Notes: generated from the sequence alone by a model not told the origin. A DNA stretch of 64,000 nucleotides from a virus (IMGVR_UViG_3300011116_001229); one strand, 5' to 3'. Positions 506 to 58,684 are shown, counted from the first letter of the stretch. Numbers and translations: made by a program.

Positions 506-811
506 ATGTCAAAGATAACTGAAACACATCTTCGTAAAATTATTAGACAAGAGATTCTTCGTGAAGCTGAAGACTCGGCGTCTGCTGCAAAGGGTGAAAA
601 AACAGACACAAAGGGTCAGCTCAATACTAAAGAGATAGCTAATCAATTAGACATGGATGAACAGACATTAAAAGCTGCAGTTCTCGCTGCTAAAAAGGGC
701 GATGCTAGCAAGGGAGCAGCTCTTTTAGCATTTGTAAAAGCTTTGCTTGCAGCAGGCCCAGATGCTTCTAAGAAGGTTGGTATGCTGATGTCTAAGATTG
801 AAGAAAAATAA
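506..811 (+). CDS. Hypothetical protein with LRKIIRQE leader; candidate head-internal protein
   Basis: Starts MSKITETHLRKIIRQEILREAE; ATATTTA at 477-483 upstream. Confidence 0.6.
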   Translation: MSKITETHLRKIIRQEILREAEDSASAAKGEKTDTKGQLNTKEIANQLDMDEQTLKAAVLAAKKGDASKGAALLAFVKALLAAGPDASKKVGMLMSKIEEK

Positions 812-899
812 TTACAAGATCAAGTTTTAAACATAGACATACCTCTGTCTTATTATAGAAGCATAGGAACCACTGGTTCTAATACTACAGAGGTAAATT

Positions 900-1169
900 A
901 TGGCACGACGAAAGAATAAGAACGCACAGTCAACTAACCACAACTCCACAATCGTTACACGTCAAGATCGTACGGGTAAGTTTCGCACCGAGACAACTCG
1001 CAGAGACAGCGGTATCACTGTCGCAGTGAGCACTAATCCTCAGAGCGACTCAACGATGCTTTATGTTGACGCTCCAAATGGTGAATCTTTTCGCTTTGAT
1101 GGTCGAGAGGCCCGCACGATCTATCGTGCACTGCAGAAGCACTACAGATTCACCGAGAAGTCTTGGTGA
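900..1169 (+). CDS. Small basic hypothetical protein
   Basis: 89 aa; GAGG before the ATG; followed by a terminator. Confidence 0.6.
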   Translation: MARRKNKNAQSTNHNSTIVTRQDRTGKFRTETTRRDSGITVAVSTNPQSDSTMLYVDAPNGESFRFDGREARTIYRALQKHYRFTEKSW

Positions 1170-1197
1170 GATTTAAGTCTGATCTAGACTAGATACG

Positions 1198-1222
1198 AGG
1201 CCTGCTCTTGCAGGCCTTTTTT
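1198..1222 (+). terminator. Intrinsic terminator
   Basis: AGGCCTGC-TCTT-GCAGGCCT followed by a T run. Confidence 0.8.
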
Positions 1223-1271
1223 GTTTCTGATTCTTGTAAACTATAGCGGCAGTCGTGTATATAATATCATC

Positions 1272-1577
1272 ATGCTAAATTTGACTCCAACTGAACTATT
1301 TTTTCTTTATGAGAATTTAACCAATTCAATCGTTACAGGATCGGAACAGCAAGAATTAAAAACCATGATTTTATCAAAAATTAAGTTTTCTCTTGTTGAG
1401 AAATTAGAATCACTTCAAGTAGAGACCAGCAAGTCAATGTATGAAGCTTGGAAGTCAAAAGAAGAGCAGAAGTTAAAGGATCTTTCTCAAAAGAACGAAG
1501 ATCTAAAAAACTCAGAACTAAATTCTTTACCTACCACATTAAAGAACAAGGTTCTTAAAAAGAAAGGTAAGCGTTAA
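1272..1577 (+). CDS. Hypothetical coiled-coil protein
   Basis: The ORF track starts at TTG 1221; ATG 1272 (MLNLTPTEL) after a TATAAT-like box at 1260-1265 is more likely. Confidence 0.55.
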   Translation: MLNLTPTELFFLYENLTNSIVTGSEQQELKTMILSKIKFSLVEKLESLQVETSKSMYEAWKSKEEQKLKDLSQKNEDLKNSELNSLPTTLKNKVLKKKGKR

Positions 1578-1756
1578 TGTCTGCATCAGCTGAAAGAATA
1601 TACTTGCAAATTGTAGAACTGGAATCTAGACTTCAAGAAGACAGGGCCGCAGGTAGAGACACTATTCTGCTTGAAGAACAGATTACATTTCTTAGAAAAG
1701 AGCTGAATAGCTTGACTGAGACTTTGTCTAGTCCCAACTTTGTTTTGAAAGGATAA
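1577..1756 (+). CDS. Small hypothetical protein, 59 aa, not in the ORF track
   Basis: TAATG overlap with the previous stop; MSASAERIYLQIVELESRLQED...FVLKG*; abuts the next ATG at 1758. Confidence 0.55.
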   Translation: MSASAERIYLQIVELESRLQEDRAAGRDTILLEEQITFLRKELNSLTETLSSPNFVLKG

Positions 1757-1757
1757 A

Positions 1758-2762: not shown

Positions 2763-2843
2763 GAGATCCTCTTGAAAGTTTTGTTTATTGATGATTACTG
2801 CTTTCTAATGATATTTATACTCGCACTCGAGTCGAGATCTTAG

Positions 2844-4022: not shown

Positions 4023-4034
4023 TGAAGGAATATA

Positions 4035-4676: not shown

Positions 4677-4684
4677 AAACTATT

Positions 4685-5932: not shown

Positions 5933-5998
5933 ATTTTCTTTTTATTAGTGAATTTTAGGACGATAATTATTGATCGGTAAATGTTAAGGAGATAGTCC

Positions 5999-8900
5999 AT
6001 GTCAGAGCAGACTTTTAAGTCGCCAAATTTTTATGAGCGCGAGATAGATCTTTCAGCACCAGCAGTTACAGGTCCAACAGGCGTACCTGCATTGATCATT
6101 GGCACTGCAAATAAAGGTCCGGCATTTGTTCCGGTAACAGTTGCTAACTTCAATGAATACGTTGAGGTATTCGGTAACTTAGACCCAGACAAATTTGGGC
6201 CATATGCTGCCAATGAGTTCTTAAAGAATAGATCGTCTCTCTCTTATATTAGAGTCTTGGGAGCCGGAGCTAATTCAACATCTGCGCACATAACGAGTAC
6301 AGCAACTTATGGTGTTGTTGAAAAGGCAGGATTTGTATTAGCAGGAACTGCAACAACCGATAATAGACACGCGGGTGCAGTTCAATTCCTTGTTGCTAGA
6401 CATGACATAGGAACTTATGAAGGTGCAGCCGCTCCGATGTTCTCTGACAACGACACGTTCGCAGGTTCATCCTATGTCAATCTAGTACGCGGTCTCATCA
6501 TGACCCCTAACACATCTAGAATCATGGTCACTGCTTCTCACGGAAGCATTGCAGCATCTTCTTTTGCAGTTGCGACAGCAATTAACGATGATGCTGATCT
6601 TATATCTGGTAAGTTTAAGCTTATTATTTCTTCTTCGCTGGGTGCAGATTTTGCCGTGACAGACGGTGTCACGGGCGTCAAGGTTTTGACAGCATCGTTT
6701 GATCCATCCGACAGCGATTACGTTGGCAAGATTCTCAATAGAGATCCTGACAAGTTTTACCAAGAGCAACATTATCTACATGCCGATTTCGCAGTTGATA
6801 AATCAATTGTATTCGCAAGCGGTAGCGCTCAAAGCAGAGTCGGTATTCTTTCTGGTTCAGCGAATACTTCAACCGCAGGTGATTCTTCTAAATCATTCCG
6901 CGAAGTCTTTGGATCTTATAATACACGCTTCACTGCACCAAAAACAACAACCTTCATCTCTCAGCCGTTCGGTAAGACTGAATACGACTTATTCCATTTC
7001 GAAGCAATTGACGATGGAGAGTACGCAAATCAGCTTTACAAGATCTCAATCTCAAATTTAAAGGCATCAGCAAATGATGCTGATCGCTATGGTACATTCA
7101 CAATTCAAGTTAGAAGCTGGGATGATACTGACCAAAATCCACAAGTCATTGAGCAATTCTCAAACTGCTCATTAAATCCCGACTCTCCAAACTACGTTGC
7201 CAAGCTAATCGGCGATAGAAAAGTACAGTACAACTTTGACTCTGTTCTGCCCGGAGAACGTCGTTTAATTGCAACTGGCAAATACGCAAATCGTTCAAGA
7301 TACGTCAGAATTATAATGAATTCGCTGGTTGACAATAAGGAAGTCCCAGAGAACAGCTTACCGTTTGGATTTAAGGGTGTTCATGCACTTAATATAAATC
7401 CCAACCTCGTTTCATCTACAGCTTTAAGTTCTGCAAATGCACGCCTGGGAGGAAAGCTCAGTACTTCATTTGCCAATCTTTCATCTTCATACGTTCCTCC
7501 TGTTCCAATGAGATTTAAGGTGACAAGAGGCGAGATGCCGACAAGCCCCTCGTTCATTGGAGCACCGGGCAATTCAGAAGTTACAGTGCCAGGTCTCTAC
7601 TGGGGTGTTAAGTTCGAGAGAGATAGCACATCATCTTCACCTACAGGTACTTCTCTTCTCAATCCGAATGTTGTTCAAGAAAAGAACGAACTTCTTGCAT
7701 CACTCACTAAGTTCGTGGGTATCGAGAAGCTTGATTCTCTTGTGACAGGTTCTAATGCTGATTCACTCAATAATAATAAGTTCTCACTGTCAAAGGTCGT
7801 TCTTTACAATGATTCAATCGGCGACTTAACTAGCTCTATCAACTCACACATGAAAGAAGCAGCTTATATTAGAAATGCTGCACTTGACAACACAAAGTAC
7901 ACTTACTCTGAAGGCGGCCGCAATAGAATGTCACTCGCGACAATTCTGGCATCAGGATCTGCGTCTGACTTTAACAAGTTCTCTGCCTTTGCTAAGTTCA
8001 CAAACTTCATGTATGGTGGATTCGACGGTACTAATTTCTTAGAGAGAAATGCTCGAAGGCTTAATGATAAGTCAGTATCTTTCGACGTCGGGGGTGGTGC
8101 TTCTACGACCAACACAATTTCTGGATTCTCAACTAATCCATCGGGTCAAGATGTCAACAACAATGGTGTTGCTTCTTACTTAGCAGCTGTTAATATTGGC
8201 ACAGATCCTCTAGTTGCAAATAATAATATACTTGCAATACCTGGAATCAGAGAGCCTTACATCAATGACAATGCCATGGCAAAAGTCAAGGATTACGGTC
8301 TTGCAATTCATGTTATGGACATACCGTCTTATGATGATAGCGGCAATAGACTGTACGATGACTCTACGGCTAAGCCAAACATCAATTATGTTTGCAATGA
8401 ACTTGACGCAAGAAGCATAGACAACAACTATGTTGCCACATACTTCCCGGACGTCTACATTGATGATGAAACCAATAGAAGAAGAGTCAAAGTACCTGCA
8501 TCAGTCGCAGCTCTTGGTGCTCTCGGATTTAACGACAGAGTGTCTTACCCATGGTTTGCACCCGCAGGCTTCAACCGAGCCGCCTTAGACTTTGTCACAA
8601 ACGTTGCAGTTCGTCTAAACGTCTCTGACAGAGATAGACTTTATGAGTCAAGAATCAACCCCATAGCGACATTCCCAAGATTGGGATTCGTTGTCTACGG
8701 TCAGAAGACTCTACAGATCAACAAGTCTGCTCTTGACAGAGTAAATGTTCGTAGACTCATGCTTGAGATAAAGCGTGTGATTATTGACATCGCGAAGAGA
8801 ATTGTCTTCGAGCAAAATACACCAGCAGTTAGAAATAAATTCGTGGCAGATACCTCATTCCAGCTTGGTCTCATCCAAGTTCAAGCAGGCATTGAAGGTT

Positions 8901-9049
8901 TCCAGGTTGTCATGAACGAAACAAACAACACACAAGAAGATGTTGATCTTAACAGACTCAATGGAAGAATAGTCGTTGTTCCAACAAGAGTTGTTGAATT
9001 CATCGCAATCGACTTTATCGTCACAAATAGTGGGGTTCAGTTCGTGTGA
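5999..9049 (+). CDS. Tail sheath protein 1
   Basis: EREIDLS...KGPAFVPVTV at the N-terminus; PWFAPAGFNR, RINPI, GQKTLQ, ALDRVNVRRL and EFIAIDF in the sheath C-domain; SD AAGGAG. Confidence 0.95.
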   Translation: MSEQTFKSPNFYEREIDLSAPAVTGPTGVPALIIGTANKGPAFVPVTVANFNEYVEVFGNLDPDKFGPYAANEFLKNRSSLSYIRVLGAGANSTSAHITSTATYGVVEKAGFVLAGTATTDNRHAGAVQFLVARHDIGTYEGAAAPMFSDNDTFAGSSYVNLVRGLIMTPNTSRIMVTASHGSIAASSFAVATAINDDADLISGKFKLIISSSLGADFAVTDGVTGVKVLTASFDPSDSDYVGKILNRDPDKFYQEQHYLHADFAVDKSIVFASGSAQSRVGILSGSANTSTAGDSSKSFREVFGSYNTRFTAPKTTTFISQPFGKTEYDLFHFEAIDDGEYANQLYKISISNLKASANDADRYGTFTIQVRSWDDTDQNPQVIEQFSNCSLNPDSPNYVAKLIGDRKVQYNFDSVLPGERRLIATGKYANRSRYVRIIMNSLVDNKEVPENSLPFGFKGVHALNINPNLVSSTALSSANARLGGKLSTSFANLSSSYVPPVPMRFKVTRGEMPTSPSFIGAPGNSEVTVPGLYWGVKFERDSTSSSPTGTSLLNPNVVQEKNELLASLTKFVGIEKLDSLVTGSNADSLNNNKFSLSKVVLYNDSIGDLTSSINSHMKEAAYIRNAALDNTKYTYSEGGRNRMSLATILASGSASDFNKFSAFAKFTNFMYGGFDGTNFLERNARRLNDKSVSFDVGGGASTTNTISGFSTNPSGQDVNNNGVASYLAAVNIGTDPLVANNNILAIPGIREPYINDNAMAKVKDYGLAIHVMDIPSYDDSGNRLYDDSTAKPNINYVCNELDARSIDNNYVATYFPDVYIDDETNRRRVKVPASVAALGALGFNDRVSYPWFAPAGFNRAALDFVTNVAVRLNVSDRDRLYESRINPIATFPRLGFVVYGQKTLQINKSALDRVNVRRLMLEIKRVIIDIAKRIVFEQNTPAVRNKFVADTSFQLGLIQVQAGIEGFQVVMNETNNTQEDVDLNRLNGRIVVVPTRVVEFIAIDFIVTNSGVQFV

Positions 9050-9096: not shown

Positions 9097-12000
9097 ATGG
9101 CAAAACTAAAGTTTGGAAGCGCAGGCGTAACAGCTAGAGAGATTGACCTCACGGGGCCAACTACACAGGAACCGATTGGTATTCCTGCTGGCATTATTGG
9201 AACGTCACTAAAAGGTCCGGCATTCGTACCAGTGACAGTAGGCAATCTATCAGATTGGACTGCTAAGTTTGGTGAAACAGATGGAAAGAAATTTGGTCCA
9301 CTGGCAGTTCGTGAATGGCTTAGAAATGCACAGGCAGTCACTTACTTAAGAGTTTTAGGTGTTGGTGACGGAAAGAAGAGAAATGCTGCAGGTGACGTCA
9401 CAAGCGCAGGTTTCACAGTAGGTGAGCAGCAACCCAGTGATCAAGCATCAAACTTAGATGCACTTGGTGCCAATGCTTATGCAAATGCAGGTGGACCTCC
9501 AGGAAGAACTTACTTCTTAGGATGTTTCATGTCAGAGTCTGCCGGTTCAAAGCTATTTAGCGAGGCTGGCATACAGACTTCTACAACAGCCATTCCAATC
9601 ATTAGAGGCGTACTCATGGCACCAAGCGGTGTCATAATGAGACTGTCTTCTTCGATTCCAGGATCTGGACTTTCTTCTGATGGTCCTTCTGCGGCGCTTG
9701 TTGCAACAGAAACAAATTCTGCAGGAACTTCTTTGGGAACTGTTGTTCTTTCACAGAACAGCACGGCCAAGCAAGAATTTGTTTTAATTCTTAATGGACA
9801 CAAAGGATCTGATGCATCTTATCCTAACGTAATTACCGCATCATTTGATGTGAATTCAAACAATTACTTCTACGATGTCTTTAACACAGACCCACTTAAG
9901 CTTCAAAAGGCAGGCCATTATCTTTACGCTCACTGGGATATTCATGGTTCACTTGCTGTTTTGACAGGCTCAGGCGTTATTAATGCTGCATCAGGTTCAG
10001 GACCAATTGGTGGTTATGAACCATCAGCATTTATCATATCTGGTTCAACAGCTAGAAACGTGGGCAGCACAACCGTTCCTAACTACGAAAACTTCAGAGA
10101 TAGGTTCGCTCACGCAGTCACTCCTTGGTTTATATCGCAGAAATTCGGCGGTGAGGCAGTTAATCTCTTTAAATTCCATGCTCTTGATGATGGAAGCTCT
10201 GTTGCTGACAAGATTAAGATTTCGATTGAGAACATTAACAAGTCAAATGATCCTCTTAATAAGTACGGTACATTTGATGTGATGCTACGTCTCTGGGATG
10301 ATAGAGATCTCGACAAGAAGGTTCTAGTGAACGAGAAATTCACAGGCGTCACACTTGATCCTTCGTCTGACAGATACATTGCAAAGGTCATTGGTGATCT
10401 TCATGCTTACTACGACTTTGACAGAGAACTTTCTTCACAGAAGCTTGTTATCGAGGGCAACTACTCAAACAAGTCTAACTACGTTCGCGTAGAAGTCAAT
10501 CCTGACATTGAGAACGGTTTTGTCGATCCACTCGCATTGCCGATGGGCTTCAGAGGCGTTGACCACTTGGTTACATCTGGTTCAGCACCGCTCTCTACAG
10601 TGACTCCAAAGGCCGTGGCGGACATTATGTCACAGGTCTACAGTGTAGGAACTGGAAGCTACCTCAAGAACTCAGTCACACCTCCGCTACCATTTAGAGC
10701 CAAGATAACAACAGGTGAAGAATGGTCAGTCAAGGAACAAGTTGAGAAGGGATTCTACTGGGGCGTTCAATTCGAGCATCCTGAGACGCTCGTTAAGAGA
10801 AATGGATCTGTTCTAAAGAACAAGAGCATTGAGTCTTTTGCGAAGTACTTCCCACAATTCGTTGTGGGCGAGGCAAAATTCGTGACAGGCAGCAACGTGG
10901 GTCAAGCTGACACTGCAGCCAACGGTATACTCGACTCAGACAGATTCTGTAATAACGTGTTCACTCTGGAGAACATTCAGGTGGTGACAGGTTCAACAGG
11001 AAATGCTGATCCTGAGAAGTGGTCAAAGGCAGTCTACGTGAGAAGCGGCGCTCCTACAGGCGGCGGTTACCTCTCTGACAGCATCGGTGCTACTGACTCT
11101 GCCAAGACAAGACCCTTTAAGGTTGACGATCTTGCAGACAACAAGCGTTATGCTAAGTTCACAGCAATCATGCAGGGTGGCTTCAATGGTGTCAATATCT
11201 TCGACGAGAATGAGTCTGAGATTACAAACCTTGCAGTCGTCGCTGACATGACATCAGGACTCGGTCGCGGCTTGAATGAAGGACCCAGCGTCTCCTCATA
11301 CCTCAAGGCTCTCGAGATCATGAAGAACACAGTCAACGTGGATATTCAGCTTCTCGCAATCCCTGGCATTAGAGAGCCGCTCGTCACTGACACGGCAATT
11401 CAAGCCACTGAGGAGAGATTCGACGCGCTGTTCATCATGGACATCGAACATCAAGATGAAAATGGCGACAACGTGAGAGACGAGAATGATCAACCCTCAG
11501 TGACGAACTCAATCACCACCTTTAGAGATCGCTCTGTGGACAGCTCCTTCGCTGCAGCTTACTTCCCAGACGTTCTCTACAGTGATCCGAAGGGCATCAA
11601 CCTCTTCGTGCCACCGTCGGTCGTGGTTCTCGGAGCTCTCTCTCTCAACGACGCTGTGGGTCATCCCTGGTTCGCCCCGGCCGGTTTCACACGCGGTGCT
11701 CTACCGCAAGATGCTCTTGAAGCACGCGTGAAGCTTAGCCAGAACGATCTAGATTCCCTCTATGACAACAGCATCAATCCTCTGGTCGCTTTCCCGGGTG
11801 CGCCAAGAAGCGGAACCAATCCCGCTTCAGGGCTCGTGGTCTGGGGCCAGAAGACACTGCAAGTCGCTGCTTCGGCACTCGACAGAGTCAACGTGAGAAG
11901 ACTCCTCATCGAGATCCGTCGTCAGGTGAGAGACATCGCTCAGACCATCATCTTCGAGCCCAACCGAGAAGCAACACTCGCTCGTTTCTCTGCAGCGGTC

Positions 12001-12189
12001 ACACCCCGTCTCCAGAGAATTCAGGCACTCGCAGGACTCGAGAGATTCAAGGTGGTCATCGATTCATCTACAACGACTCAGGACGACATCCTCAACAACA
12101 CACTCCGCGGAAAGATCTTCGTGCAACCCACGAAGAGCATCGAGTTCGTCAGCCTCGACTTCGTGGTGTCCAACAACATTCAGTCCTGA
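9097..12189 (+). CDS. Tail sheath protein 2 (paralog)
   Basis: Same sheath motifs: AREIDLT, KGPAFVPVTV, PWFAPAGFTR, GQKTLQ, ALDRVNVRRL, EFVSLDF. Confidence 0.95.
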   Translation: MAKLKFGSAGVTAREIDLTGPTTQEPIGIPAGIIGTSLKGPAFVPVTVGNLSDWTAKFGETDGKKFGPLAVREWLRNAQAVTYLRVLGVGDGKKRNAAGDVTSAGFTVGEQQPSDQASNLDALGANAYANAGGPPGRTYFLGCFMSESAGSKLFSEAGIQTSTTAIPIIRGVLMAPSGVIMRLSSSIPGSGLSSDGPSAALVATETNSAGTSLGTVVLSQNSTAKQEFVLILNGHKGSDASYPNVITASFDVNSNNYFYDVFNTDPLKLQKAGHYLYAHWDIHGSLAVLTGSGVINAASGSGPIGGYEPSAFIISGSTARNVGSTTVPNYENFRDRFAHAVTPWFISQKFGGEAVNLFKFHALDDGSSVADKIKISIENINKSNDPLNKYGTFDVMLRLWDDRDLDKKVLVNEKFTGVTLDPSSDRYIAKVIGDLHAYYDFDRELSSQKLVIEGNYSNKSNYVRVEVNPDIENGFVDPLALPMGFRGVDHLVTSGSAPLSTVTPKAVADIMSQVYSVGTGSYLKNSVTPPLPFRAKITTGEEWSVKEQVEKGFYWGVQFEHPETLVKRNGSVLKNKSIESFAKYFPQFVVGEAKFVTGSNVGQADTAANGILDSDRFCNNVFTLENIQVVTGSTGNADPEKWSKAVYVRSGAPTGGGYLSDSIGATDSAKTRPFKVDDLADNKRYAKFTAIMQGGFNGVNIFDENESEITNLAVVADMTSGLGRGLNEGPSVSSYLKALEIMKNTVNVDIQLLAIPGIREPLVTDTAIQATEERFDALFIMDIEHQDENGDNVRDENDQPSVTNSITTFRDRSVDSSFAAAYFPDVLYSDPKGINLFVPPSVVVLGALSLNDAVGHPWFAPAGFTRGALPQDALEARVKLSQNDLDSLYDNSINPLVAFPGAPRSGTNPASGLVVWGQKTLQVAASALDRVNVRRLLIEIRRQVRDIAQTIIFEPNREATLARFSAAVTPRLQRIQALAGLERFKVVIDSSTTTQDDILNNTLRGKIFVQPTKSIEFVSLDFVVSNNIQS

Positions 12190-14714: not shown

Positions 14715-14715
14715 G

Positions 14716-35965: not shown

Positions 35966-36970
35966 ATGGCTAAAGGTCTAGACGTTGGAACATCTTTTAT
36001 TGTGCTTGCATCTGAGGGTAACAAGGGCAAAGTAGTCTACAAAGACTTTAGAGACGCTTTTTATGTCATTAAGCCCACGACTCCAATCGCCACAAAGATG
36101 ATTGAGAAGGGTCTTTCTGGCAAGATCTTTGTAAAAGATGACGATGGATCTTTTATTATTCTAGGAAAAGACGCGATTGAGAAGGCAGTCGAGAGAAATG
36201 ACTCAGCCAAGCGTCCAATGCACAAGGGTGTGGTTTCTTCTAAAGAGAAAGAAGCTAGAAGAATTTTAACATACATACTTAAAGAAGTTGCAGGACAAGC
36301 AGCTGAACAAGATGAAAAACTTGTCTTCTGCATTCCGGCTCAACCTGTCGATCAAGAGGATGAAGATTTTGACGTTGGTTATCATGAAGACGTCGTTAAG
36401 TCTGTTCTTTCTGATTGCGGCTATGACGCAAAGTCTATTAATGAAGCAGAAGCCCTTTGCTATTCTGAGCTTGCAGATGATGATTACACCGGTGTTGCTC
36501 TGTCGTGGGGCGCAGGGATGGTGAACGTCTGCGTGATGCTCAATGGTGAGCCTGTGCTGAAATTCTCAACAACAAAGTCCGGTGACTGGATTGATCGTAT
36601 GGCAGCAGTTGCCACTGGAGAAACTGACTCTGTCGTACAGGCGGAGAAAGAAAATGGTGATTTCACAGTGGGGCAAGACAATGATAATCAAGTTCTTGCG
36701 GCCGTTGCTTCTTACTACGATAGACTAATTGATTACACTGCAAAACAATTAGTAGATGCGCTAGAGGAAAACAAAGCACTGCCCAAGTTTAAGGATGCAA
36801 TTCCAGTTGTTCTTGCAGGCGGCACGACAAAGGCAAAAGGCTTTGTCGACCACTTTAAGATTAAGCTTGAAGAAAATGGGTTTCCGCTGCCCGTCAAGGA
36901 TGTTCGCCATGCAGCTGATCCTCTTCACGCTGTGGCTAGAGGCTGCTTAATCGCATCCCAGATTCTTTGA
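35966..36970 (+). CDS. Actin-fold ATPase (MreB/FtsA/ParM superfamily)
   Basis: Phosphate-1 GLDVGTS, connect-1 INEAEAL, phosphate-2 SWGAGMVN, adenosine VLAGGT..AKGF, connect-2 DPLHAVARG. Confidence 0.8.
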   Translation: MAKGLDVGTSFIVLASEGNKGKVVYKDFRDAFYVIKPTTPIATKMIEKGLSGKIFVKDDDGSFIILGKDAIEKAVERNDSAKRPMHKGVVSSKEKEARRILTYILKEVAGQAAEQDEKLVFCIPAQPVDQEDEDFDVGYHEDVVKSVLSDCGYDAKSINEAEALCYSELADDDYTGVALSWGAGMVNVCVMLNGEPVLKFSTTKSGDWIDRMAAVATGETDSVVQAEKENGDFTVGQDNDNQVLAAVASYYDRLIDYTAKQLVDALEENKALPKFKDAIPVVLAGGTTKAKGFVDHFKIKLEENGFPLPVKDVRHAADPLHAVARGCLIASQIL

Positions 36971-39451: not shown

Positions 39452-42400
39452 ATGTCGTACACACGTGATGAAGCTTTTAACGCCTCTTTAAAGTATTTCA
39501 ACGGAGATGAATTAGCTGCGAGCGTATTTGTTGATAAATACGCGCTGAGAGACGCGTCAGGGAAATTACACGAACTGACACCGTCAGATATGCACCGTAG
39601 ACTGGCGCGTGAGTTTGCAAGAATTGAAGCCAAGTATCCCAATCCGTTGTCTGAAAAAGAAATCTTTTGTCTTTTGGCTGACGTAGATCACATTGAAGAA
39701 TCAAAGCGCGCATCTATGACATTGGATGAATTGGCTTCTGAATCTCGAGGATTCGGTGCCGTGGTGCCGCAGGGTTCTCCGATGTCGGCCATTGGTAATG
39801 AATTTCAGTATCAGTCGTTATCTAATTGCTTCGTGATTCAGTCGCCTTATGATTCCTACGCTGGTATCCTAAAAGCCGACCAAGAGCAAGCTCAAATCAT
39901 GAAACGTCGAGGAGGTGTTGGCTTTGATGTTTCTACTATTCGTCCAAAAGGATTAATCACAGCAAACGCTGCCCGTACCACAGACGGCATTGGGGTCTTC
40001 ATGGAAAGGTTCTCAAATACCTGCCGCGAAGTTGCCCAAGGTGGCCGCCGCGGAGCGTTAATGCTTACTATCGATGTTCACCACCCAGAGATCCGCACCT
40101 TCATCAACATCAAGCGCGACCTCAAGAAGGTTACTGGTGCCAACATCTCCATTCGTCTCACTGACGAATTCATGCAAGCAGTGAAAGATGGTGAAAAAGC
40201 ACACCTTAGATTCCCTGTTGAGAAGGACGCAAAGCATACAGTTGAAACTTGGGTTGATGCTCGAGAACTTTGGCATGAAATTATTGAAGCAGCTTGGGCT
40301 TCTGCAGAACCAGGACTATTATTCTGGGACACTGTCAAGAAGCGTACACCAACTGAGGCATATGAGGATTATCGTTCAACATCCACGAATCCATGTATTG
40401 TTGGTGATACGCTCATTGCCGTTGCAGACGGAAGAAATGCAGTCAGTATCCGTCAGCTTGCGGAAGAAGGCAAGGACGTTCCGGTGTATTCGACTAACCC
40501 AGAAACTGGTCAAGTTGAAATTAAATTAGGAAGAAAACCGAGACTAACAAAGAATCAAGTCGAGGTCTGGAAGTTGACGCTTGACGATGGAAGCTTCCTT
40601 ATTGCAACACCTGATCATAGGATCATGAAGCGCGACTGCACTTATGTGGAGCTTCAGAACCTAAAGTCTGGTGATTCCATCTTTCCATTCAACTCTTTTA
40701 ATTCAAATGGGTACAGACAAGTTTCCAACACAGGTGTCTTGATGACAGGCGGAGCTCGAAGAAATAGACGACAGTATCGTCTCATCCACGAGTTCCATTT
40801 TGGGCCCGTTGATCCAAAAATTCATGCTATTCATCATATTGATTGTGATTCTCTCAATGACAGCATTGAGAACATGAGGATCATGACCCATAAGGAACAT
40901 CATGATTTACATTCTAAGAACATGCTGGGGGAGAGCAATCCTTACTTCAAGATGTCTGAAGAGTGGAAAACAAACTTTGCAACCCATCCTGGCGAAACAA
41001 ATGGCAGATTCTCGGGCCATACTAACGATCAGCTTCTTGAACATGGCAGGAATCTATTTGAGAAACATGGCAAGCTGACAGGAAAGATCTGGTCGGACCA
41101 TGCCAAGAAACATGGTCTACCTCAATTCCTTGCAAATAAGTTCCGGTTTGAGTCTTGGAATAACTTTGTTAATCAGGTATCTAACAATCACAAGGTCGTC
41201 TCAGTAGAGAAATTCGGCATTGAGGATGTCTACAATATCACGGTTGACGATAATCACAACTACCATGTTATCACTTCACATGAGGATTCCAAGTTCGTGG
41301 TTTCCTCTGGCATCTGTGTCAAGAACTGCGGTGAAATCGTTCTATCACCATACGATTCTTGTAGGTTGCTTCTCGTCAATCTCTACAAGTTCGTCAAGAA
41401 CCCATTCACATCTGCTGCCTCATATGACAACGAGAGACTCAAGGATGTTGCAGTTAAAGCACAGCGTCTCATGGATGATCTCATCGACCTTGAGATTGAA
41501 GCTGTTGATAAGATCATTGCTAAGATTCAGAATGATCCAGAACCAGAAGACGTTAAAAGGTCTGAACTTGACCTCTGGACTAAGATTAAAAAAGCAGCTC
41601 TCGGAGGTCGGAGAACTGGCTTGGGTATCACTGCGCTTGGAGACACATTGGCTGCAATGGGCTTCGTCTACGGTTCAAAGAATTCTATCCAAATGACTGA
41701 ATCGCTCTACAAGGCATTAGCACTTTCTGCCTATCGTTCGACTGTCGCGATGGCTGCAGAGCGTGGTGCATTCCCAGTCTTCTCTCATAAGCTTGAGGAG
41801 AAGCATCCATTCATCCAACAAATCCTTGAAGCAGACCCTGATCTCGCAAAGGATTACAAGAAGCACGGCCGCCGAAACATCGCTCTAACAACTACAGCAC
41901 CGGCTGGTTCTGTGTCTGTCCTAACGCAAACGACGTCTGGTATCGAGCCGGCGTTCATGCTCTTCTACAAACGCCGCAAGAAGGTCAACGGTGATGATCC
42001 AAATGTTCGTGTCGACTTTGTAGATCCACTCGGCGACAAGTGGCAGGAGTACATGGTATACCATCATGCTTTCAAGAAGTGGATGGAGGTCAACGGAAAG
42101 ACCGAAACCGACTTCGCTGAGTCTCCATACCACGGCGGCACCGCAAATGAGATCGATTGGGTTGCCAAGGTCGACCTCCAAGCCGCCGCCCAGAAGTGGA
42201 TCTGTCATTCTATCTCCAACACAACAAACATTCCAAATTCAACTTCAGTTGATGTTGTCAAGGGCATCTACATGAGGGGTTGGGAGACTGGGTGTAAGGG
42301 TGTCACAATCTATCGTGATGGATGCCGAACCGGCGTTCTCGTAGCAGAGACTCCGAAGGAAGAGCAGACAATTGAAGGTCAGCCTGATACCTTAATAGAA

Positions 42401-42955
42401 AATCATGCACCAAAGCGACCCAAGGAATTAACCTGTGATATTCACAGAATTAACGTGAGGTCATCTGGTGACAATGAGAGCTATCTTGTTTTGGTGGGTA
42501 AGCTAGAAGATAAGCCATACGAAATCTTCTGCGGTCTATCGCAGCACGTTGAGGTACCGAAAAAAGCCAAGACAGGTACGATGATCAAGAATGGCAAGAA
42601 GGATGGGGTTGCGACCTACAATCTTCAGATTCCGATTGGTGATGATGATCAGCTATTGTTCAAGGACGTTGTAGAATTATTTTCAAATCCAAATCATGGA
42701 TCCATGACAAGAACTTTATCGTTAGCACTACGACATGGAGTTCCTGTTCAATACGTGGTTGAGCAGCTTCAAAAGGACAAACACAGCGGCCTTCAGTCTT
42801 TCTCTAGAGCTATCTCTCGTGTCTTAAAAACATATATTCCTGATGGAACAAAAGCGCAGTCAGACAAGATCTGCGGTTCTTGCGGTCTTGAAGGAATTGT
42901 CTACAAAGAAGGTTGCGCAACCTGTAACTCTTGCGGTTGGTCAAAATGTGGGTGA
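39452..42955 (+). CDS. nrdJ: Class II (B12-dependent) ribonucleotide reductase with an intein
   Basis: SNCF, TNPC..GE split by an intein, APAGSVS..TQTTSGIEP, YRDGCR; C-terminal TSCPD-like domain and Zn ribbon; no ATP cone; no beta-subunit gene nearby. Confidence 0.88.
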   Translation: MSYTRDEAFNASLKYFNGDELAASVFVDKYALRDASGKLHELTPSDMHRRLAREFARIEAKYPNPLSEKEIFCLLADVDHIEESKRASMTLDELASESRGFGAVVPQGSPMSAIGNEFQYQSLSNCFVIQSPYDSYAGILKADQEQAQIMKRRGGVGFDVSTIRPKGLITANAARTTDGIGVFMERFSNTCREVAQGGRRGALMLTIDVHHPEIRTFINIKRDLKKVTGANISIRLTDEFMQAVKDGEKAHLRFPVEKDAKHTVETWVDARELWHEIIEAAWASAEPGLLFWDTVKKRTPTEAYEDYRSTSTNPCIVGDTLIAVADGRNAVSIRQLAEEGKDVPVYSTNPETGQVEIKLGRKPRLTKNQVEVWKLTLDDGSFLIATPDHRIMKRDCTYVELQNLKSGDSIFPFNSFNSNGYRQVSNTGVLMTGGARRNRRQYRLIHEFHFGPVDPKIHAIHHIDCDSLNDSIENMRIMTHKEHHDLHSKNMLGESNPYFKMSEEWKTNFATHPGETNGRFSGHTNDQLLEHGRNLFEKHGKLTGKIWSDHAKKHGLPQFLANKFRFESWNNFVNQVSNNHKVVSVEKFGIEDVYNITVDDNHNYHVITSHEDSKFVVSSGICVKNCGEIVLSPYDSCRLLLVNLYKFVKNPFTSAASYDNERLKDVAVKAQRLMDDLIDLEIEAVDKIIAKIQNDPEPEDVKRSELDLWTKIKKAALGGRRTGLGITALGDTLAAMGFVYGSKNSIQMTESLYKALALSAYRSTVAMAAERGAFPVFSHKLEEKHPFIQQILEADPDLAKDYKKHGRRNIALTTTAPAGSVSVLTQTTSGIEPAFMLFYKRRKKVNGDDPNVRVDFVDPLGDKWQEYMVYHHAFKKWMEVNGKTETDFAESPYHGGTANEIDWVAKVDLQAAAQKWICHSISNTTNIPNSTSVDVVKGIYMRGWETGCKGVTIYRDGCRTGVLVAETPKEEQTIEGQPDTLIENHAPKRPKELTCDIHRINVRSSGDNESYLVLVGKLEDKPYEIFCGLSQHVEVPKKAKTGTMIKNGKKDGVATYNLQIPIGDDDQLLFKDVVELFSNPNHGSMTRTLSLALRHGVPVQYVVEQLQKDKHSGLQSFSRAISRVLKTYIPDGTKAQSDKICGSCGLEGIVYKEGCATCNSCGWSKCG
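40394..41326 (+). mobile_element. Intein (311 aa) with HNH endonuclease in the RNR active site
   Basis: Begins CIVGDTLIA; block B TPDH; HNH IHHIDCDSLNDSIENM; block F DVYNITVDDNHNY; ends VKN before +1 Cys. Removal restores TNPCGEI. Confidence 0.92.
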
Positions 42956-49133: not shown

Positions 49134-49334
49134 GTGAAAGATACGTCAAATAAGCGCTTGAGATTGCTGCTAAGACAACTTGTTAAAGAAGCTGTATTGG
49201 CTGGGTCTCACCCAGACGAATCTTATAAAAATCAAATGATAGACGACCCTGCTTTTAATGAAAAAAGCGTCTATGTATCTGATGATATCAAAGATGCTAT
49301 AAAGAAATGGCTGAAGGCCATGAAGTTAGATTAA
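49134..49334 (+). CDS. Small hypothetical protein with LRQLVKE motif
   Basis: GTG start 6 nt after ATAATTA. Confidence 0.55.
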   Translation: MKDTSNKRLRLLLRQLVKEAVLAGSHPDESYKNQMIDDPAFNEKSVYVSDDIKDAIKKWLKAMKLD

Positions 49335-49385
49335 TTTTTCAACCTTTTGCGCTCGTTGATATTTAGAAACTAGGAGTGTCTTTGA

Positions 49386-50519
49386 ATGCAACTCAAGCTG
49401 AAGAATCTGCAAGGAATCGTCAAAGAGACGATGAAGAGAGAAAAAGCTGCACATCAGTTAATGAAAGAAGCAGTTGAAGTTTTTGGTCCGACTGTTGAAG
49501 TCTCAAGCGATCCGCGCCGAGTTTTCGCAGCGATCAATGATAAATTAACCGTTATGGAAGCGCGCGGCCAAGATCTGCCAGTTGGATCTTTGAGAGTCTC
49601 AGCATTATTGTCAGCTGCTGAAACTAACAAAGAAGCTAGAAAATTAGCAGCAAGATTACTTCCTGAAAAATATGCTGTTAAATTTTTAACTGATAAAGAC
49701 TCGAGCGTTAGATGCGCAGCAGCAAAGAGGTTTTCTTATGATCAGCTTGCTGAAACGCTGAGAAGATATCCATTCGATGATCAGCTCTTGACTATAGCAC
49801 AGCAAAAGCGTCTTTTTGAAGCAGGAATTCCTACACCAAAATCTGACGATGATCAATTTGATATGTACGGTGACGGTCCTATCGCTGAGATTCTCGATGG
49901 ATATGAACCAGAAGATTTAACAGATGGCTGGTACAAGAGGATGGCTGTTAAGATTTTCAACGATTATAGAGGTAGACTAGACGGTAACTGGAAACACCTA
50001 GCTGTTTCAAGGCTCTGCTCGAGCATATACGCAACGTCTGGCGTCAAAGTCGATTACATGAAACTCACAGAAGAACTCGAAGCAGTGTGTGAGAACTATG
50101 GCTTCCTCAAGGAGGGCTTTGCCTTTGAAGAGACTAAAGAAAGACTTATCTTTGAAGCAGACGAAGCAGAAACTAATGTTATGCCCGTCCTCGATGAGAG
50201 CTTCTTTGCTGATCCTATTAAGGAATTGCTTCGAGAAGGATCTTCAAAAACAAGCTATGTTGACTCTGCAAACAAGCTGTTTAACATTACACATGACTTA
50301 ATAGAAGAATCACTGTACACGGGTGATGTGCAATTAGTTGAAGCTCCTCAATATGGACGACTTCCCGGTGGTTATAATTGGAACTCGTCTGCTGAGAAAG
50401 CTCTTGATAGATACGTAAGTAATTGGAATGAAAGAGCAGACGCGAGAGGCTCTAATTGTAGAATTGCTTGGAATTACGGCTTTAACACAAAAATTAACTT
50501 TTCAGTGGTGGACAAATGA
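49386..50519 (+). CDS. Hypothetical protein with leader motif, LxE sites and a short HEAT-like repeat
   Basis: MQLKLKNLQGIVKE; DKDSSVRCAAAKR; LFEAG, IFEAD, LREGS; ATATTTA and SD AGGAG upstream. Confidence 0.55.
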   Translation: MQLKLKNLQGIVKETMKREKAAHQLMKEAVEVFGPTVEVSSDPRRVFAAINDKLTVMEARGQDLPVGSLRVSALLSAAETNKEARKLAARLLPEKYAVKFLTDKDSSVRCAAAKRFSYDQLAETLRRYPFDDQLLTIAQQKRLFEAGIPTPKSDDDQFDMYGDGPIAEILDGYEPEDLTDGWYKRMAVKIFNDYRGRLDGNWKHLAVSRLCSSIYATSGVKVDYMKLTEELEAVCENYGFLKEGFAFEETKERLIFEADEAETNVMPVLDESFFADPIKELLREGSSKTSYVDSANKLFNITHDLIEESLYTGDVQLVEAPQYGRLPGGYNWNSSAEKALDRYVSNWNERADARGSNCRIAWNYGFNTKINFSVVDK

Positions 50520-51088
50520 ATCTAAAATCTTCTGGAGTAGTTCCTGTAAAGGCTGCAGTTACTGTAGTTGCTGTTGAGCCTAACATTAATATCTTGACAG
50601 ATAATATGATTGCTGAGTGGGGACACGTCCCATATGCAGGCTTGTCAGTCGTCTTATCGCATCTTAAGTATTTGTATGAATTGCATCAGTATCATCACTG
50701 GACTGCAATGGGTGACCCTTTCTACGGAGATCATTTGCTCTTTCAGCGTTTATATGATGGCGTCTCAAAAGAGATTGACATGATTGCTGAGAAAGCTATT
50801 GGTCTAGGCTGCACGACAAATGTTGACCTTCACCTAGTTCATTCTCAAGTTCTAAAATTGATCTCTGGCACTGATTCCGCGACTATGATTCCTCAATCTT
50901 CTGACCTTGCAAGAAAATCTTTGATGGCGGAGACGAATTTCTTAAAAGTGATTGAGCACATTATCTCGCACCTTCAAGAGTGCGGTCTTCTCACCTCAGG
51001 ACTTTCAAATATGCTTGAAGGAATTGCTGACTCTCATGAAGGGCATGTTTATTTGTTAAAGCAGAGAGTCTCTAATCCCCTAGTTTAA
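50516..51088 (+). CDS. dps: Dps / ferritin-like protein
   Basis: HHWTAMGDPFYGDHLLFQRLYD....EIDMIAEK aligns with the Dps ferroxidase H-W..H..D..E motif. Confidence 0.7.
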   Translation: MNLKSSGVVPVKAAVTVVAVEPNINILTDNMIAEWGHVPYAGLSVVLSHLKYLYELHQYHHWTAMGDPFYGDHLLFQRLYDGVSKEIDMIAEKAIGLGCTTNVDLHLVHSQVLKLISGTDSATMIPQSSDLARKSLMAETNFLKVIEHIISHLQECGLLTSGLSNMLEGIADSHEGHVYLLKQRVSNPLV

Positions 51089-51096: not shown

Positions 51097-51789
51097 ATGA
51101 AACTTACAACCTCACAGCTTCGTCAAATTATCAAAGAAGAACTTAATGATATTAATAGCGTCACAAACGATTCTCAGCGTTTCTTGCACGGCTATGAAGA
51201 GAATCATCCTCACGATGACGAAGGTTATATGCTGAAGTCTAATCTGTATTCTATGAAACAGATGGCGGAAGAAGTCTGTGAAATTGTTCAGTCGGATGAT
51301 CAGCTTCCAGGTTGGGTACAAGAACTTTTAGCCGTATCTCATGAGAATCTCTCACACGTGCATCGGTACCTTACAGGCGATGAAGCACTGAGAAAATATT
51401 CTCAGCAGCCACAAATGAAAGAATCTAAACTGAACGAGAGTCATAATCGTATCACTAAAGAAGAGATGGATGCTTGGATGAGAGGTGACTGGGGTTTTGT
51501 TTCAGAAGGGGGCACTATGAAGACCTATGATAACAATACCGACTGGGTGAACGCTGTCTATTCTGATGATCGTACCATTGGACAATTGCTTAATGCTCAT
51601 GATGACATGTCAAAAACCCCCATTCGAGGTTACGACGTGTCCGTATCAAGTTCTGCATTTCAAGATCTTTTACCTTATGAAGATTTGAAGATCAATAATT
51701 TACAAGATCCAAAAATTAATGAAAGAGTCAAAGAACTTGTTTCTGATTTGATAAGCTTGGCTGCTGCTATAGACGAAGACATGATGTGA
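51097..51789 (+). CDS. Hypothetical protein with LRQIIKEE leader
   Basis: MKLTTSQLRQIIKEEL; internal MKESKLNES. Confidence 0.6.
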   Translation: MKLTTSQLRQIIKEELNDINSVTNDSQRFLHGYEENHPHDDEGYMLKSNLYSMKQMAEEVCEIVQSDDQLPGWVQELLAVSHENLSHVHRYLTGDEALRKYSQQPQMKESKLNESHNRITKEEMDAWMRGDWGFVSEGGTMKTYDNNTDWVNAVYSDDRTIGQLLNAHDDMSKTPIRGYDVSVSSSAFQDLLPYEDLKINNLQDPKINERVKELVSDLISLAAAIDEDMM

Positions 51790-56011: not shown

Positions 56012-56053
56012 AGTAATTAAGTACTTTTGTACCTGACGGAGATAAGTATAGCC

Positions 56054-56233
56054 ATGAAACAATCGAAGATCTCGGTCGATGAAGAGACCCATAAATTGCT
56101 GAAGATATACTGTGCTCAGCACGGTCTGATTATGAGTCAGTTCACCGCCGAGATCATTCGAGAGAGGATTGGCAATGAAAGAGAAGATCTGCGCACAATG
56201 CGAAAAGAAATTTGTGCCAAAGAATCCATTTAG
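56054..56233 (+). CDS. Small ribbon-helix-helix-type DNA-binding protein
   Basis: KISVDEETHKLLKIYCAQHGLIMSQFTAEII has the strand-helix-helix pattern. Confidence 0.6.
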   Translation: MKQSKISVDEETHKLLKIYCAQHGLIMSQFTAEIIRERIGNEREDLRTMRKEICAKESI

Positions 56234-57068
56234 TAATAAGTCTGGTTTCTTCTTTTGCTCGAAAGAGTGCACTTATCTTGCTCAGAAGAAGGGCGGTGTC
56301 ACATATGAGCTCCGTCGAAAGAGGTCACTAGAGAAGCACGGCACCGACTTTCCAATGTCTTGCCCTGAGATAAAGAATAAGCGCAGCAACAACAACATAA
56401 AAAAGTACGGTGTTGCCAGCACGTTTGAACTTGATTCAGTCAAAGAGAAGTCAAAAAAGACTTCACGTGAGAAATATGGGGTTGATGTTTACTCACAAAC
56501 AACAGAATTCAAGTCCAAGATCGAAGAGACAAATCTAAAGAGATTCGGACATAAGTCTCCGATAGAAAATCCCAACATTCTAGAACGACGACGGCAGACA
56601 ATGATCGACAGATGGGGAGGTCCATCAACTTTCGAATCACCTGTTCTACGAGCTCGCGCTGAAGATACCTGTATTGAAAAGTTCGGAGTTCATAATATTG
56701 TCTTATCGCCGACGTTTATCTCTTCTTCCATGGATAAGAAACTGCTCAAATCACATGGAAAAACTTGGCAGCAGTACATCGATGACCTACCTGAATTTCA
56801 GGATTATCGAAGAAAAGTCGATCACTTTACACGCATGCAGCCGATCGAACAGCTAGCCAATCATGATAAACGTGGTGAATATCATCTCGATCACAAGTTT
56901 TCAGTCGCTGAAGGGTTTAGACAAGGTCTACCACCCGAGGTGATAGGTCACATTGTGAATCTGGAATTCATACCGGCTGCAGAAAATCTTCGAAAACAGT
57001 CAAGTTGTTCAATTGACAAAGACGCATTACTATCAGAATACTCAACTAGAAAGGTAAATCAAAGATGA
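56175..57068 (+). mobile_element. Putative HNH homing endonuclease with (E/K)K(Y/F)G repeats
   Basis: CAQC...CSKEC; repeats EKHG, KKYG, EKYG, KRFG, DRWG, EKFG; C-terminal YHLDHKFS...NLEFIPAAENLRK. Confidence 0.7.
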
Positions 57069-57520
57069 ATCGAAAAAAGATGTATCTCGCAAGCGGATGG
57101 TTCAACCCTACACAGGAAGCAGAGCTCACGAGGCTCGAGCAGATTATGGAAGCACGTAAGGACTGGATCGATATGGCTTCACCACGTAGGATCTTCATCT
57201 GTCCACCTAATGCATCTCGTGAAGTACAAGATGCAACCTATCAGGGTAATCTTAAACACATCCGCGAGGCTGACTTCCTCGTTGTGAACACCCGCGACAA
57301 GGATCTCGGTACGATCATGGAATGTGGTTATGCTACAGCCTTTGACAAGCATATCATCTACTTCTGTGCAGGACTTCCCCCCGGAGCAAAATTTAATCTT
57401 ATGCTTTCAAGATCGGGTGCATTCGTGGCTACTTCGTTCGAACAACTCGAAGACTACCTCGATCGGTGCAAGTCTGCAGGCGAGATGCTTTACGAACCGT
57501 ACGACAAGGAAATTGAGTGA
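57065..57520 (+). CDS. Nucleoside 2-deoxyribosyltransferase / nucleotide N-glycosidase family
   Basis: MYLASGWFN...ADFLVVN..DKDLGTIMECGYA matches the NDT Y..A...F / D.GT..E.G.A pattern. Confidence 0.8.
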   Translation: MNRKKMYLASGWFNPTQEAELTRLEQIMEARKDWIDMASPRRIFICPPNASREVQDATYQGNLKHIREADFLVVNTRDKDLGTIMECGYATAFDKHIIYFCAGLPPGAKFNLMLSRSGAFVATSFEQLEDYLDRCKSAGEMLYEPYDKEIE

Positions 57521-57580
57521 CTTAAAGTGAAAATGAAGAGAGGCGCTATAAAATTGGCGTCTCCTTCATAATTAAGTGTT

Positions 57581-58342
57581 ATGTTAATCAAGCTTTCACA
57601 ACTTCGTAAAATTATTAGAGAAGAGCTTTCACGTACTTTGAGTGAAGACGCATCTGATTTAAGCGCAGCAGAACCAAGCGAAATGGTAAAAAATCTAGCT
57701 GGGAAAACAGGATTGGGTCCTTTCTCTTACGGCCCTATCTCTTTAAGAAATTTAATGGCAAAAGTTGAATCAACAGGAGATATATCGCTGTTAGATAACT
57801 GGGACAAAGTAGTTGCTGCAGCGTATGAAACAGAGAAAGAAATAAAGCGAATAAGAAACACTCCTACTTATGAGATCACTGATGCGCAGGGAAATAAACA
57901 AGTTCGACCCAGATCTCCTGGTTCAATTTTAAATACTGAGAGTAGAAAAGCAGCTGAAGATGCAGCAGCTGAACAGGGCCTCGAAGGAGAAGTTGCCGGT
58001 CGAGATTATGCAGCATATGTTTCAACACTTGTCGATAGCATGAAGAACTTTAAACAGGTTCCGCCTATAAGAGCTGATATCCTCGCTGCTCTTGAATTTC
58101 GCAAACAAAAGAAAGAAGCTCACGAGAATAGAGAGGCTTCACCCGAAGATATAAAGAAGCTTAGAAATCTTTTAGCATCCCACGATTGGTACTACGAGAG
58201 AGCTGAAGGTCTTCAGCCGTCTTATACTAAGGGTGCTGCTCAAGCCGAAGAGATTAAGCTCCTTGTCAATAAAATGGGCAAAACAGGTAGAGATATGTAC
58301 AACGCTGCCGCAGCAAAAGCATTCCCAAAGGGTGCGACTTGA
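57581..58342 (+). CDS. Hypothetical protein with LRKIIREE leader
   Basis: MLIKLSQLRKIIREELSRTLSE; ATAATTA 6 nt before the ATG. Confidence 0.6.
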   Translation: MLIKLSQLRKIIREELSRTLSEDASDLSAAEPSEMVKNLAGKTGLGPFSYGPISLRNLMAKVESTGDISLLDNWDKVVAAAYETEKEIKRIRNTPTYEITDAQGNKQVRPRSPGSILNTESRKAAEDAAAEQGLEGEVAGRDYAAYVSTLVDSMKNFKQVPPIRADILAALEFRKQKKEAHENREASPEDIKKLRNLLASHDWYYERAEGLQPSYTKGAAQAEEIKLLVNKMGKTGRDMYNAAAAKAFPKGAT

Positions 58343-58405
58343 TCTAAGCGAGATGATTAAAATCTTCTTTGCAGTTATATTTAAAGACATCATTTGGAGA
58401 AAAAC

Positions 58406-58684
58406 ATGAAATTGACATCATCACAGCTTCGCAAGATCATCTCAGAAGAGGTCTCAAAGGTTGTCACCGAGCAAGGATTAACACCAGGCAGACTTGCGCT
58501 AGGATCACTTGCAGATATTTCTGAAATAGAAAAAGCAAAAGCTGCTTTAGACTCTTTTCGTATGCACATAGAGAAGAATGCTATCGCCGAGGGGCATGAC
58601 AGTGAAGAAGCAGAAGACTTCGCGCGCGACGGATTGGGCGAGATGTTTCAAGAATTCATGCAAAGCATTGGATACAGGATGTGA
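58406..58684 (+). CDS. Hypothetical protein with LRKIISEE leader
   Basis: MKLTSSQLRKIISEEVSKVVTE; GGAG SD; ATATTTA at 58377-58383. Confidence 0.6.
   Translation: MKLTSSQLRKIISEEVSKVVTEQGLTPGRLALGSLADISEIEKAKAALDSFRMHIEKNAIAEGHDSEEAEDFARDGLGEMFQEFMQSIGYRM

Follow-up and report, generated by a model that had tools for sequence, protein, structure and literature searches.

Bacteriophage T4 sends its internal proteins to the prohead core by means of a 10-residue N-terminal capsid-targeting sequence (CTS), which is then removed (PMC3012670, PMC9026906). The internal proteins of T-even phages are diverse and have the CTS alone in common (PMC3012670, PMC9026906), and the T4 prohead protease gp21 cleaves after L/I-x-E (PMC9026906). 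This study concerns a 64,000-nucleotide (nt) stretch of DNA from an uncultured virus (IMGVR_UViG_3300011116_001229), called the window below and numbered over its whole length, in which four otherwise unrelated proteins begin with the same 15-22-residue N-terminal peptide, here called the tag. Judged by its sequence, the tag appears closest in kind to the T4 CTS, and a full-text literature search on the peptide strings found no paper containing it. The reading favored here, at a probability of roughly 0.55, is that the tag is a capsid or prohead-core targeting propeptide like the T4 CTS and is removed by an S77 protease.

The tag resembles the CTS in being a short N-terminal peptide that is common to unrelated proteins and ends in hydrophobic-hydrophobic-x-Glu. 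The N-terminal propeptides in the T4 record are MKTYQEFIAE (twice), MAKINELLRE (gp24) and MNEPQLLIE (gp21), and their ends (FIAE, LLRE, LLIE) share that form with the II(K/R)E found here. The genomic setting is also alike: the genome encodes a protease of the gp21 family (S77) together with a Gp23 capsid protein and an acidic scaffold, and tagged genes lie partly inside and partly far from the head module and occur in tandem, as do T4 ipII/ipIII. The tag differs from the CTS in length (about 22 residues, 14 to the first site, versus 10), in its predicted fold as an amphipathic helix and in having two candidate cut sites. It also differs in scale, with 6-9 or more tagged genes per genome, thousands of cargo families versus three, and open reading frames (ORFs) in which several tagged units are fused. 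In T4, gp21 also removes the propeptides of gp24, of gp21 itself and of Alt. The CTS of the T4 internal proteins IPI, IPII and IPIII was reportedly described by Mullaney & Black in 1996.

Two other systems invite comparison. In encapsulins the cargo-loading peptides usually sit at the C-terminus, attach to the shell protein itself and are not known to be removed; like the tag they are short, portable and take diverse cargo into an HK97-fold shell, and they have no known homology to it. In the giant phages phiKZ and SPN3US the cut motif is S/A/G-x-E, and the propeptides are long and not known to share a single tag. The likeness is that of a large myovirus in which many head-internal proteins bear propeptides and are cut after Glu by a T4-related (gp21-related) prohead protease (PMC5694885, PMC10052503).

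The tag as an N-terminal peptide

The pattern LR.II..E has four matches in the window when all six frames are considered, each 7-8 residues past an initiator Met, and the degenerate DNA pattern of the tag matches four times versus 0.01 expected (100 shuffles). These are the four N-terminal leaders that a sequence-only reading of the window had placed at 506, 51097, 57581 and 58406, and all four were borne out. The tagged ORFs and their tags are as follows, with lengths in amino acids (aa) and E values from a tag profile.

506-811, plus strand: tagged ORF of 101 aa, basic, Ala/Lys-rich, N-terminus MSKITETHLRKIIRQE
506-565, codons 1-20: tag of ORF 506, MSKITETHLRKIIRQEILRE then AEDS, profile E 2e-7
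51097-51789, plus strand: tagged ORF of 230 aa, acidic, isoelectric point (pI) 4.6, N-terminus and tag MKLTTSQLRQIIKEE at 51097-51141, profile E 1e-10
57581-58342, plus strand: tagged ORF of 253 aa, N-terminus MLIKLSQLRKIIREE
57581-57646, codons 1-22: tag of ORF 57581, MLIKLSQLRKIIREELSRTLSE then DASD
58406-58684, plus strand: tagged ORF of 92 aa, acidic, N-terminus MKLTSSQLRKIISEE
58406-58471, codons 1-22: tag of ORF 58406, MKLTSSQLRKIISEEVSKVVTE then QGLT, profile E 2.5e-11

As had been claimed, the sequences behind the leader are unrelated: the post-tag parts of the four proteins show no pairwise BLASTP similarity (best E 0.29). The same reading had placed LxE sites behind the leader. With a slash for the putative cut, these are found after the core as LRE/A in 506 and LSE/D in 57581; ORF 58406 has VTE/Q in that place, and ORF 51097 has none beyond IIKE/E. 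Three weaker copies, at 49386, at 49134 and internally in 46510, did not hold up. None was scored by the profile (E>10) after three iterations over 12,162 candidate N-termini, and they were left out of the tally for that reason. ORFs 49386-50519 (plus strand, MQLKLKNLQGIVKE) and 49134-49334 (plus strand, GTG start, LLLRQLVKE) are thus not supported as members of the tag family.

The tag is not confined to the window. When the profile (34 positions) was run against a library of 1.84 billion clusters at 50% identity, 4,132 cluster representatives matched at E<=0.001. Scanning with a profile of the leader, a check that the sequence-only reading had proposed, kept the four ORFs and added thousands of further clusters. 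The tag consensus is MKITKSQLR(Q/K)IIKEE(L/V/I)xxxLxE, and the best library hits give MKITKxQLRxIIKEExxxxLxE, with the tag at residue 1-3 in 144 of the 150 best hits. A pattern scan of IMG/VR with the degenerate DNA form of [QH]LR[KQ]II.[EQ]E gave more than 118 loci among the matches listed. An ATG lies 1-10 codons upstream in 123 of the 131 pattern matches listed (exactly 6 codons in 76, 4 in 39), and several residues are conserved that the pattern does not force, namely M, K/R, I/L and T ahead of the core, then K/R at +6 with I/V/L at +9.

Within the tag core II-x-E is invariant. Hydrophobic-x-Glu is found at +13 to +15 in 87 of 140 tags (62%) and within 2 positions of there in 106 (76%). 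Behind this terminal hydrophobic-x-Glu the 140 tags have D/S/G/A/N, and then conservation collapses. The mature parts range from about 40 to more than 400 aa and from pI 4.6 to 9, without detectable similarity, and the cargo of the tagged library proteins belongs to essentially no Pfam family. Likewise, no meaningful family was found in PHROGs or Pfam for the window's tagged proteins and 20 other tagged proteins, and the ESM Atlas matches of 57581 and 51097 are unnamed viral clusters only. Across 62 diverse tags the synonymous third positions vary freely (CTT/CTA/CTC, CGT/CGA/CGC, ATC/ATT) while the amino acids are invariant. Conservation of the tag thus acts at the peptide level, and an RNA or DNA element is excluded as the conserved entity because the third codon positions vary freely.

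An AlphaFold2 model of 57581 (predicted local distance difference test score, pLDDT, 72) places a helix at residues 5-24 and then an all-alpha body, with pLDDT falling under 50 over residues 19-28; a Foldseek search of the PDB with this model found nothing at E<=0.001. An orthologue of 57581 with 60% identity is identical over the first 16 tag residues, and an indel lies right behind the LxE. A Sec or Tat signal peptide, which calls for a hydrophobic core of at least 10 residues behind a basic N-region, was rejected as an identity for the tag, in which charged and hydrophobic residues alternate with no hydrophobic stretch.

Tandem pairs of tagged genes are common. In 62 of the 150 best library hits there are 2-3 tags in one ORF, and each tag inside such an ORF retains a Met. 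For P0005 (304-912 of locus L159; G- and L-numbers denote contigs and loci of other phage records), the single case read at the DNA level, an AAGGA Shine-Dalgarno-like stretch lies 8 nt before the internal Met. From sequence, the multi-tag ORFs may join tandem cargo genes with no stop codon in between or may contain nested starts, and multi-cargo polyproteins are possible.

Genomic setting of the tagged genes

The window phage is a large, uncultured, freshwater T4-like myovirus, found in metagenomes from lake, river and estuary in at least nine studies. Its genes in the window lie mostly on the plus strand and include gp13-like and gp15-like neck genes, a T4 baseplate protein, gp32, RecA and a DnaB-like helicase. 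A Peptidase_S77 (T4 gp21-type) prohead protease is present in all five large tag-bearing contigs (146-191 kb). The mid-size tag contigs are 9-48% complete fragments, and S77 is found in 8 of these 24, often 6-15 kb from the tags. The tag-profile search found up to nine tagged ORFs per large contig (178-211 kb); G004, G006 and G007 have 6-9 tags each, and G004, which is 98% complete, has nine. As far as seen, the tag is confined to S77-bearing T4-like phages. Matches in two near-complete small provirus records (L029, L060) were not N-terminal and were taken as chance.

By sheath protein, the closest cultured relatives are Microcystis phage Mel-JY01, Flavobacterium phage immuto and Rhodothermus phage RM378. 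In immuto one protein is clearly tagged, gp080 (YP_010114603, MKKSQLRQIIKEALD), and another is tag-like, gp114 (MKLDLLKKLIKEAV). A tblastn search of the tag against cultured phages had a sole match, an uncultured 484-kb phage record with about 12 tagged ORFs. The window DNA had no match in INPHARED by megablast or blastn, and an IMG/VR scan for close relatives with P0001 found none.

A 29.6-kb Joint Genome Institute contig of the same phage (L153), in which window position 1 corresponds to position 18026, adds 18 kb upstream. It contains the head module, with portal, protease, scaffold and capsid genes 13 kb upstream of the window, in the following order.

1: TerL C-terminus
2: tagged 103-aa ORF, MQKISVNQLKQIIKEEIQKINE then D, directly before the portal gene
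3: portal with intein
4: 287-aa ORF, L153 4097-4960
5: S77 protease, L153 4963-5574
6: tag-like 144-aa ORF, MKLTKNDLKQIVKECLVEILSE then G
7: tagged 80-aa acidic ORF, MKLTSKLLKQIIEEEV.., L153 6090-6332
8-9: two further ORFs, then a 679-aa acidic scaffold-like protein
10: 618-aa Gp23 capsid protein
11-12: further genes, tagged ORF 506, then the gp13-like gene

The four tagged proteins of the window become seven for this phage once the head module is counted. Alignment of the capsid protein with T4 around the VRR motif gives VLKE/SS as its likely maturation site. In G004 a tagged 115-aa ORF lies immediately before the protease gene and a tag-like 142-aa ORF after it. ORF 506 belongs to the head/neck block, where it precedes the gp13-like neck gene by about 2 kb, and tagged ORFs fill the same slot in L028, L068, L072 and L119. 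The sequence-only reading had the tagged genes scattered among metabolic genes; this holds for three of the ORFs and not for 506, with its place among structural genes. A tight run of three genes (49386 / 50516 / 51097) has ORF 51097 as its last member. The gene between, at 50516-51088, is translationally coupled to its neighbors and encodes a weak ferritin-like / DUF5856 protein (E 6e-4).

In T4 the gene order is 20-67-68-21-22-23, with gp67 and gp68 in the portal-protease slot. The tagged proteins of the head module resemble these in being small, often acidic and encoded beside the portal and protease genes; the tagged 80-aa ORF equals gp67 in length, and gp67 contains DLIKEE. They differ in position, since the tagged genes of the window phage lie before the portal and after the protease gene, not in between. 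For some of the tagged proteins a role in the prohead core is likelier than one as effector.

Tagged genes also recur in the interval from sheath to tube, ahead of gp13, ahead of TerL and near gp32/recA. The tagged family next to TerL was considered as TerS and rejected; a separate conserved 181-200-aa ORF (MATV..GL.QAAAN) fills that role or slot, and in L008 a tagged gene is inserted between this ORF and TerL.

A short motif upstream of the tagged genes was also examined. The copies that bear on the four tagged ORFs are these.

477-483, plus strand: ATATTTA, 29 nt before the start of ORF 506
49359-49365, plus strand: ATATTTA before ORF 49386, at the head of the run containing tagged ORF 51097
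57568-57574, plus strand: ATAATTA, 13 nt before the start of ORF 57581
58377-58383, plus strand: ATATTTA, 29 nt before the start of ORF 58406
ATA(T/A)TTA sites in the window: 477, 2811, 5963, 12900, 15148 (minus strand), 32571, 35642, 44674
ATA(T/A)TTA sites, continued: 46411, 46467, 49121, 49359, 53592 (minus strand), 57568, 58377, 59811

The sequence-only reading had placed ATAnTTA directly upstream of almost all members; it stands before 506, 57581 and 58406, and ORF 51097 has none of its own, the motif being at the head of its run. About 17 of the 23 occurrences of ATA(T/A)TTA in the window lie 13-99 nt upstream of start codons. There are 13 copies of ATATTTA, and 11 of them lie at this distance upstream of a same-strand start, including those of 506, 58406, 49386 and the gp13-like gene. 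Each of the six plus-strand copies of ATAATTA likewise precedes a gene, among them 57581 and the sheath gene (motif at 5963). A head-core gene of the window phage also has the motif in front of it, and so do head genes in G002 and G004, portal and scaffold among them. Its relatives CTATTTAT and ATATTTAT are located ahead of portal and scaffold genes elsewhere in the clade. Among 86 non-redundant upstream regions of tag genes from other phages, TATTTAT is found in 31, CTATTTA in 24 and ATATTTA in 20 (about 1 expected each). Upstream regions do not align beyond the short motif. From sequence, ATA(T/A)TTA probably serves this lineage as its late promoter, distinct from T4's TATAAATA; it is read as late-type because of the genes it precedes (portal, scaffold, neck, sheath).

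Other features of these genomes are as follows. At window 5999-9049 and 9097-12189 there is a tandem pair of tail-sheath-like paralogues (about 1,020 aa each) whose N-termini are similar, an arrangement unusual for a contractile tail. An actin-fold protein at window 35966-36970 strongly matches the archaeal Volactin family (PF25216, E 1e-68), and a 100-aa ORF upstream of its gene (35661-35963) carries the ATATTTA motif. Related tag-bearing phages have a tubulin/FtsZ-like ORF near terminase instead (L008 5373-6512; L129 16510-17646, minus strand). HNH-bearing inteins split the ribonucleotide reductase (window 39452-42955) and the portal protein (L153 966-4097). A conserved protein of about 280 aa (MxxKHxKKRN..., no known family), whose gene always separates portal from protease (L153 4097-4960; L129 10893-11717, minus strand; L156 6361-7215), is a candidate clade-specific head-assembly factor. 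A TnsA-like endonuclease gene lies right behind the capsid gene (L153 11769-12596).

Removal of the tag and competing explanations

If the tag is a targeting propeptide, this amphipathic helix of about 22 residues would direct unrelated proteins into the assembling prohead core late in infection. The S77 (gp21-type) protease would then cut after the Glu of hydrophobic-x-Glu, at the core II-x-E, at the terminal LxE or at both. Mature proteins would remain in the head with the DNA, and the tagged members encoded in the head module may act as core proteins and then be degraded. By analogy with T4, the tagged proteins would bind the prohead core, be cleaved and be packaged. They may also be injected, as the sequence-only reading had inferred, and might include host-takeover or anti-defence effectors, as it had proposed; the cargo carries no recognisable domain. 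Since only the hydrophobic-hydrophobic-x-Glu end is common to both, the tag would work like the CTS while belonging to a different sequence family. A complex prediction for the tag alignment with the 679-aa scaffold scored 0.00 and counts neither for nor against this.

The mature parts were also compared for avoidance of the cut motif. Observed motif counts in 179 non-redundant mature parts, and in 614 small ORFs from the same loci that lack a tag, were set against shuffle expectation. In the mature parts [LI].E was observed 187 times versus 193 expected, while [LI].D, [LI].K, [LI].Q and E.[LI] were 29-34% over expectation. In the untagged ORFs [LI].E was at 1.21 of expectation and was the most enriched of the compared motifs. 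The observed/expected ratio of L.E was 1.02 in tagged proteins versus 1.31 in controls (z -2.8, rank 5 of 216 pairs). ORF 57581 has zero [LIVMF].E in the 231 residues past its tag (P=0.008). The relative depletion of L-x-E in mature parts gives modest backing to removal of the tag by the protease.

Several observations weigh against targeting to the head. The tag has no sequence similarity to MKTYQEFIAE beyond hydrophobic-hydrophobic-x-Glu, and no homology was detected between T4 gp67 and the tagged 80-aa ORF. The depletion of L-x-E is modest, and I.E shows none. ORF 51097 has no terminal LxE at the usual offset and contains nine internal hydrophobic-x-Glu sites. The promoter-like motif precedes non-structural genes too. 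The largest tagged family (MKLDQLRKIIREEV..., 135-147 aa, 28 loci; for example L155 9843-10274 and L123 6001-6420) lies directly upstream of the gp25/gp6 baseplate genes, a slot found again in contig G002 (191 kb) and shared by the tag-like gp114 of immuto. With the baseplate, sheath-tube and gp32/recA slots, not all tagged genes look head-like by position, and the baseplate-cluster family in particular is unexpected under a pure head-cargo model. Position is not equal to function, and the ip genes of T4 are likewise distant from head genes. The papers on immuto and Mel-JY01 contain no virion proteomics. The proposal of a portable capsid-targeting signal has several independent circumstantial lines in its favor (the S77 protease, head-module neighbors, the sharp end of the tag, the promoter-like motif and L-x-E depletion), and the baseplate-cluster family speaks against it.

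The alternative that survives best, itself unlikely, is that the tag is a general interaction or sorting helix of late proteins that is not capsid-bound and perhaps never cleaved, serving a shared chaperone, a membrane assembly site, an actin or tubulin cytoskeleton, or oligomerisation. The tagged genes in baseplate, sheath-tube and gp32/recA slots would fit such a helix, as would the predicted amphipathic character of the tag and the actin-like (window 35966-36970) or tubulin-like proteins that these phages encode. However, it gives no account of why conservation ends at hydrophobic-x-Glu followed by small or acidic residues, and it leaves unexplained the depletion of L-x-E in mature parts and the tagged genes that flank the protease gene. 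The strictly N-terminal position, with internal copies only in multi-tag ORFs and each with its Met, is not explained by it either.

A less probable view is that the tagged proteins are ordinary paralogues of one small-protein family, in which the N-terminal helix was constrained and the rest diverged, with no portable signal. The many tandem pairs suggest duplication, and cargo that is small and often helical or of low complexity could diverge quickly. Yet the mature parts vary in length from about 40 to more than 400 aa, are of opposite charge and have no detectable similarity, and the 4,132 clusters are defined at 50% identity. Orthologues at fixed syntenic slots are distinct families that have the tag alone in common, and paralogy does not explain the sharp, motif-bounded end of the tag or its linkage to the protease. 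Paralogy is in any case compatible with a targeting function and not opposed to it.

It is very improbable that the tag is a leader for a modifying enzyme, as in ribosomally synthesized and post-translationally modified peptides with a radical-SAM partner. One enzyme with many precursors would also yield a shared N-terminus on unrelated proteins, but no radical-SAM gene is present in G004, G006 or G007 despite their 6-9 tags each, or near the tagged genes of the window. The single radical-SAM gene of G001 is far from its tags, and G002 has five such genes but one tag. The enzyme that recurs wherever there is enough sequence is the S77 protease. A nucleic-acid element over the first codons (translation-initiation signal, operator or recombination cassette) is just as improbable: the region at the start codon is A/T-rich, and the window tags have CTT for Leu in 4/4 and CGT for Arg in 3/4, but third positions are free across the 62 tags and the upstream regions are unaligned beyond the promoter motif.

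What the tag may mark

Returning to the tag as a targeting propeptide, a broader and more tentative proposal, held at somewhat less than even odds, is that the 22 residues of the tag identify a "capsid cargo-ome", predictable from sequence, in an abundant and almost wholly uncultured clade of aquatic T4-like phages. This would comprise several thousand unrelated families, with 6-9 or more members per genome, loaded via one portable helix and released by S77, and would include fused ORFs of 2-3 units. Because the cultured phage immuto carries a tagged protein, the question of packaging and cleavage is directly testable.

If this is true, protein delivery in these phages would be far larger and more modular than the three internal proteins of T4, and the tag, longer and helical, might be put to use as a packaging handle. 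The T4 CTS principle would be either ancient or repeatedly invented, with different tags matched to one protease specificity. One short motif would reveal, from sequence, the capsid-carried proteins of many uncultured freshwater and marine T4-like phages. This capsid-borne fraction would be the likeliest set of first actors in the host, for instance against its defences, in its takeover or in protecting DNA.

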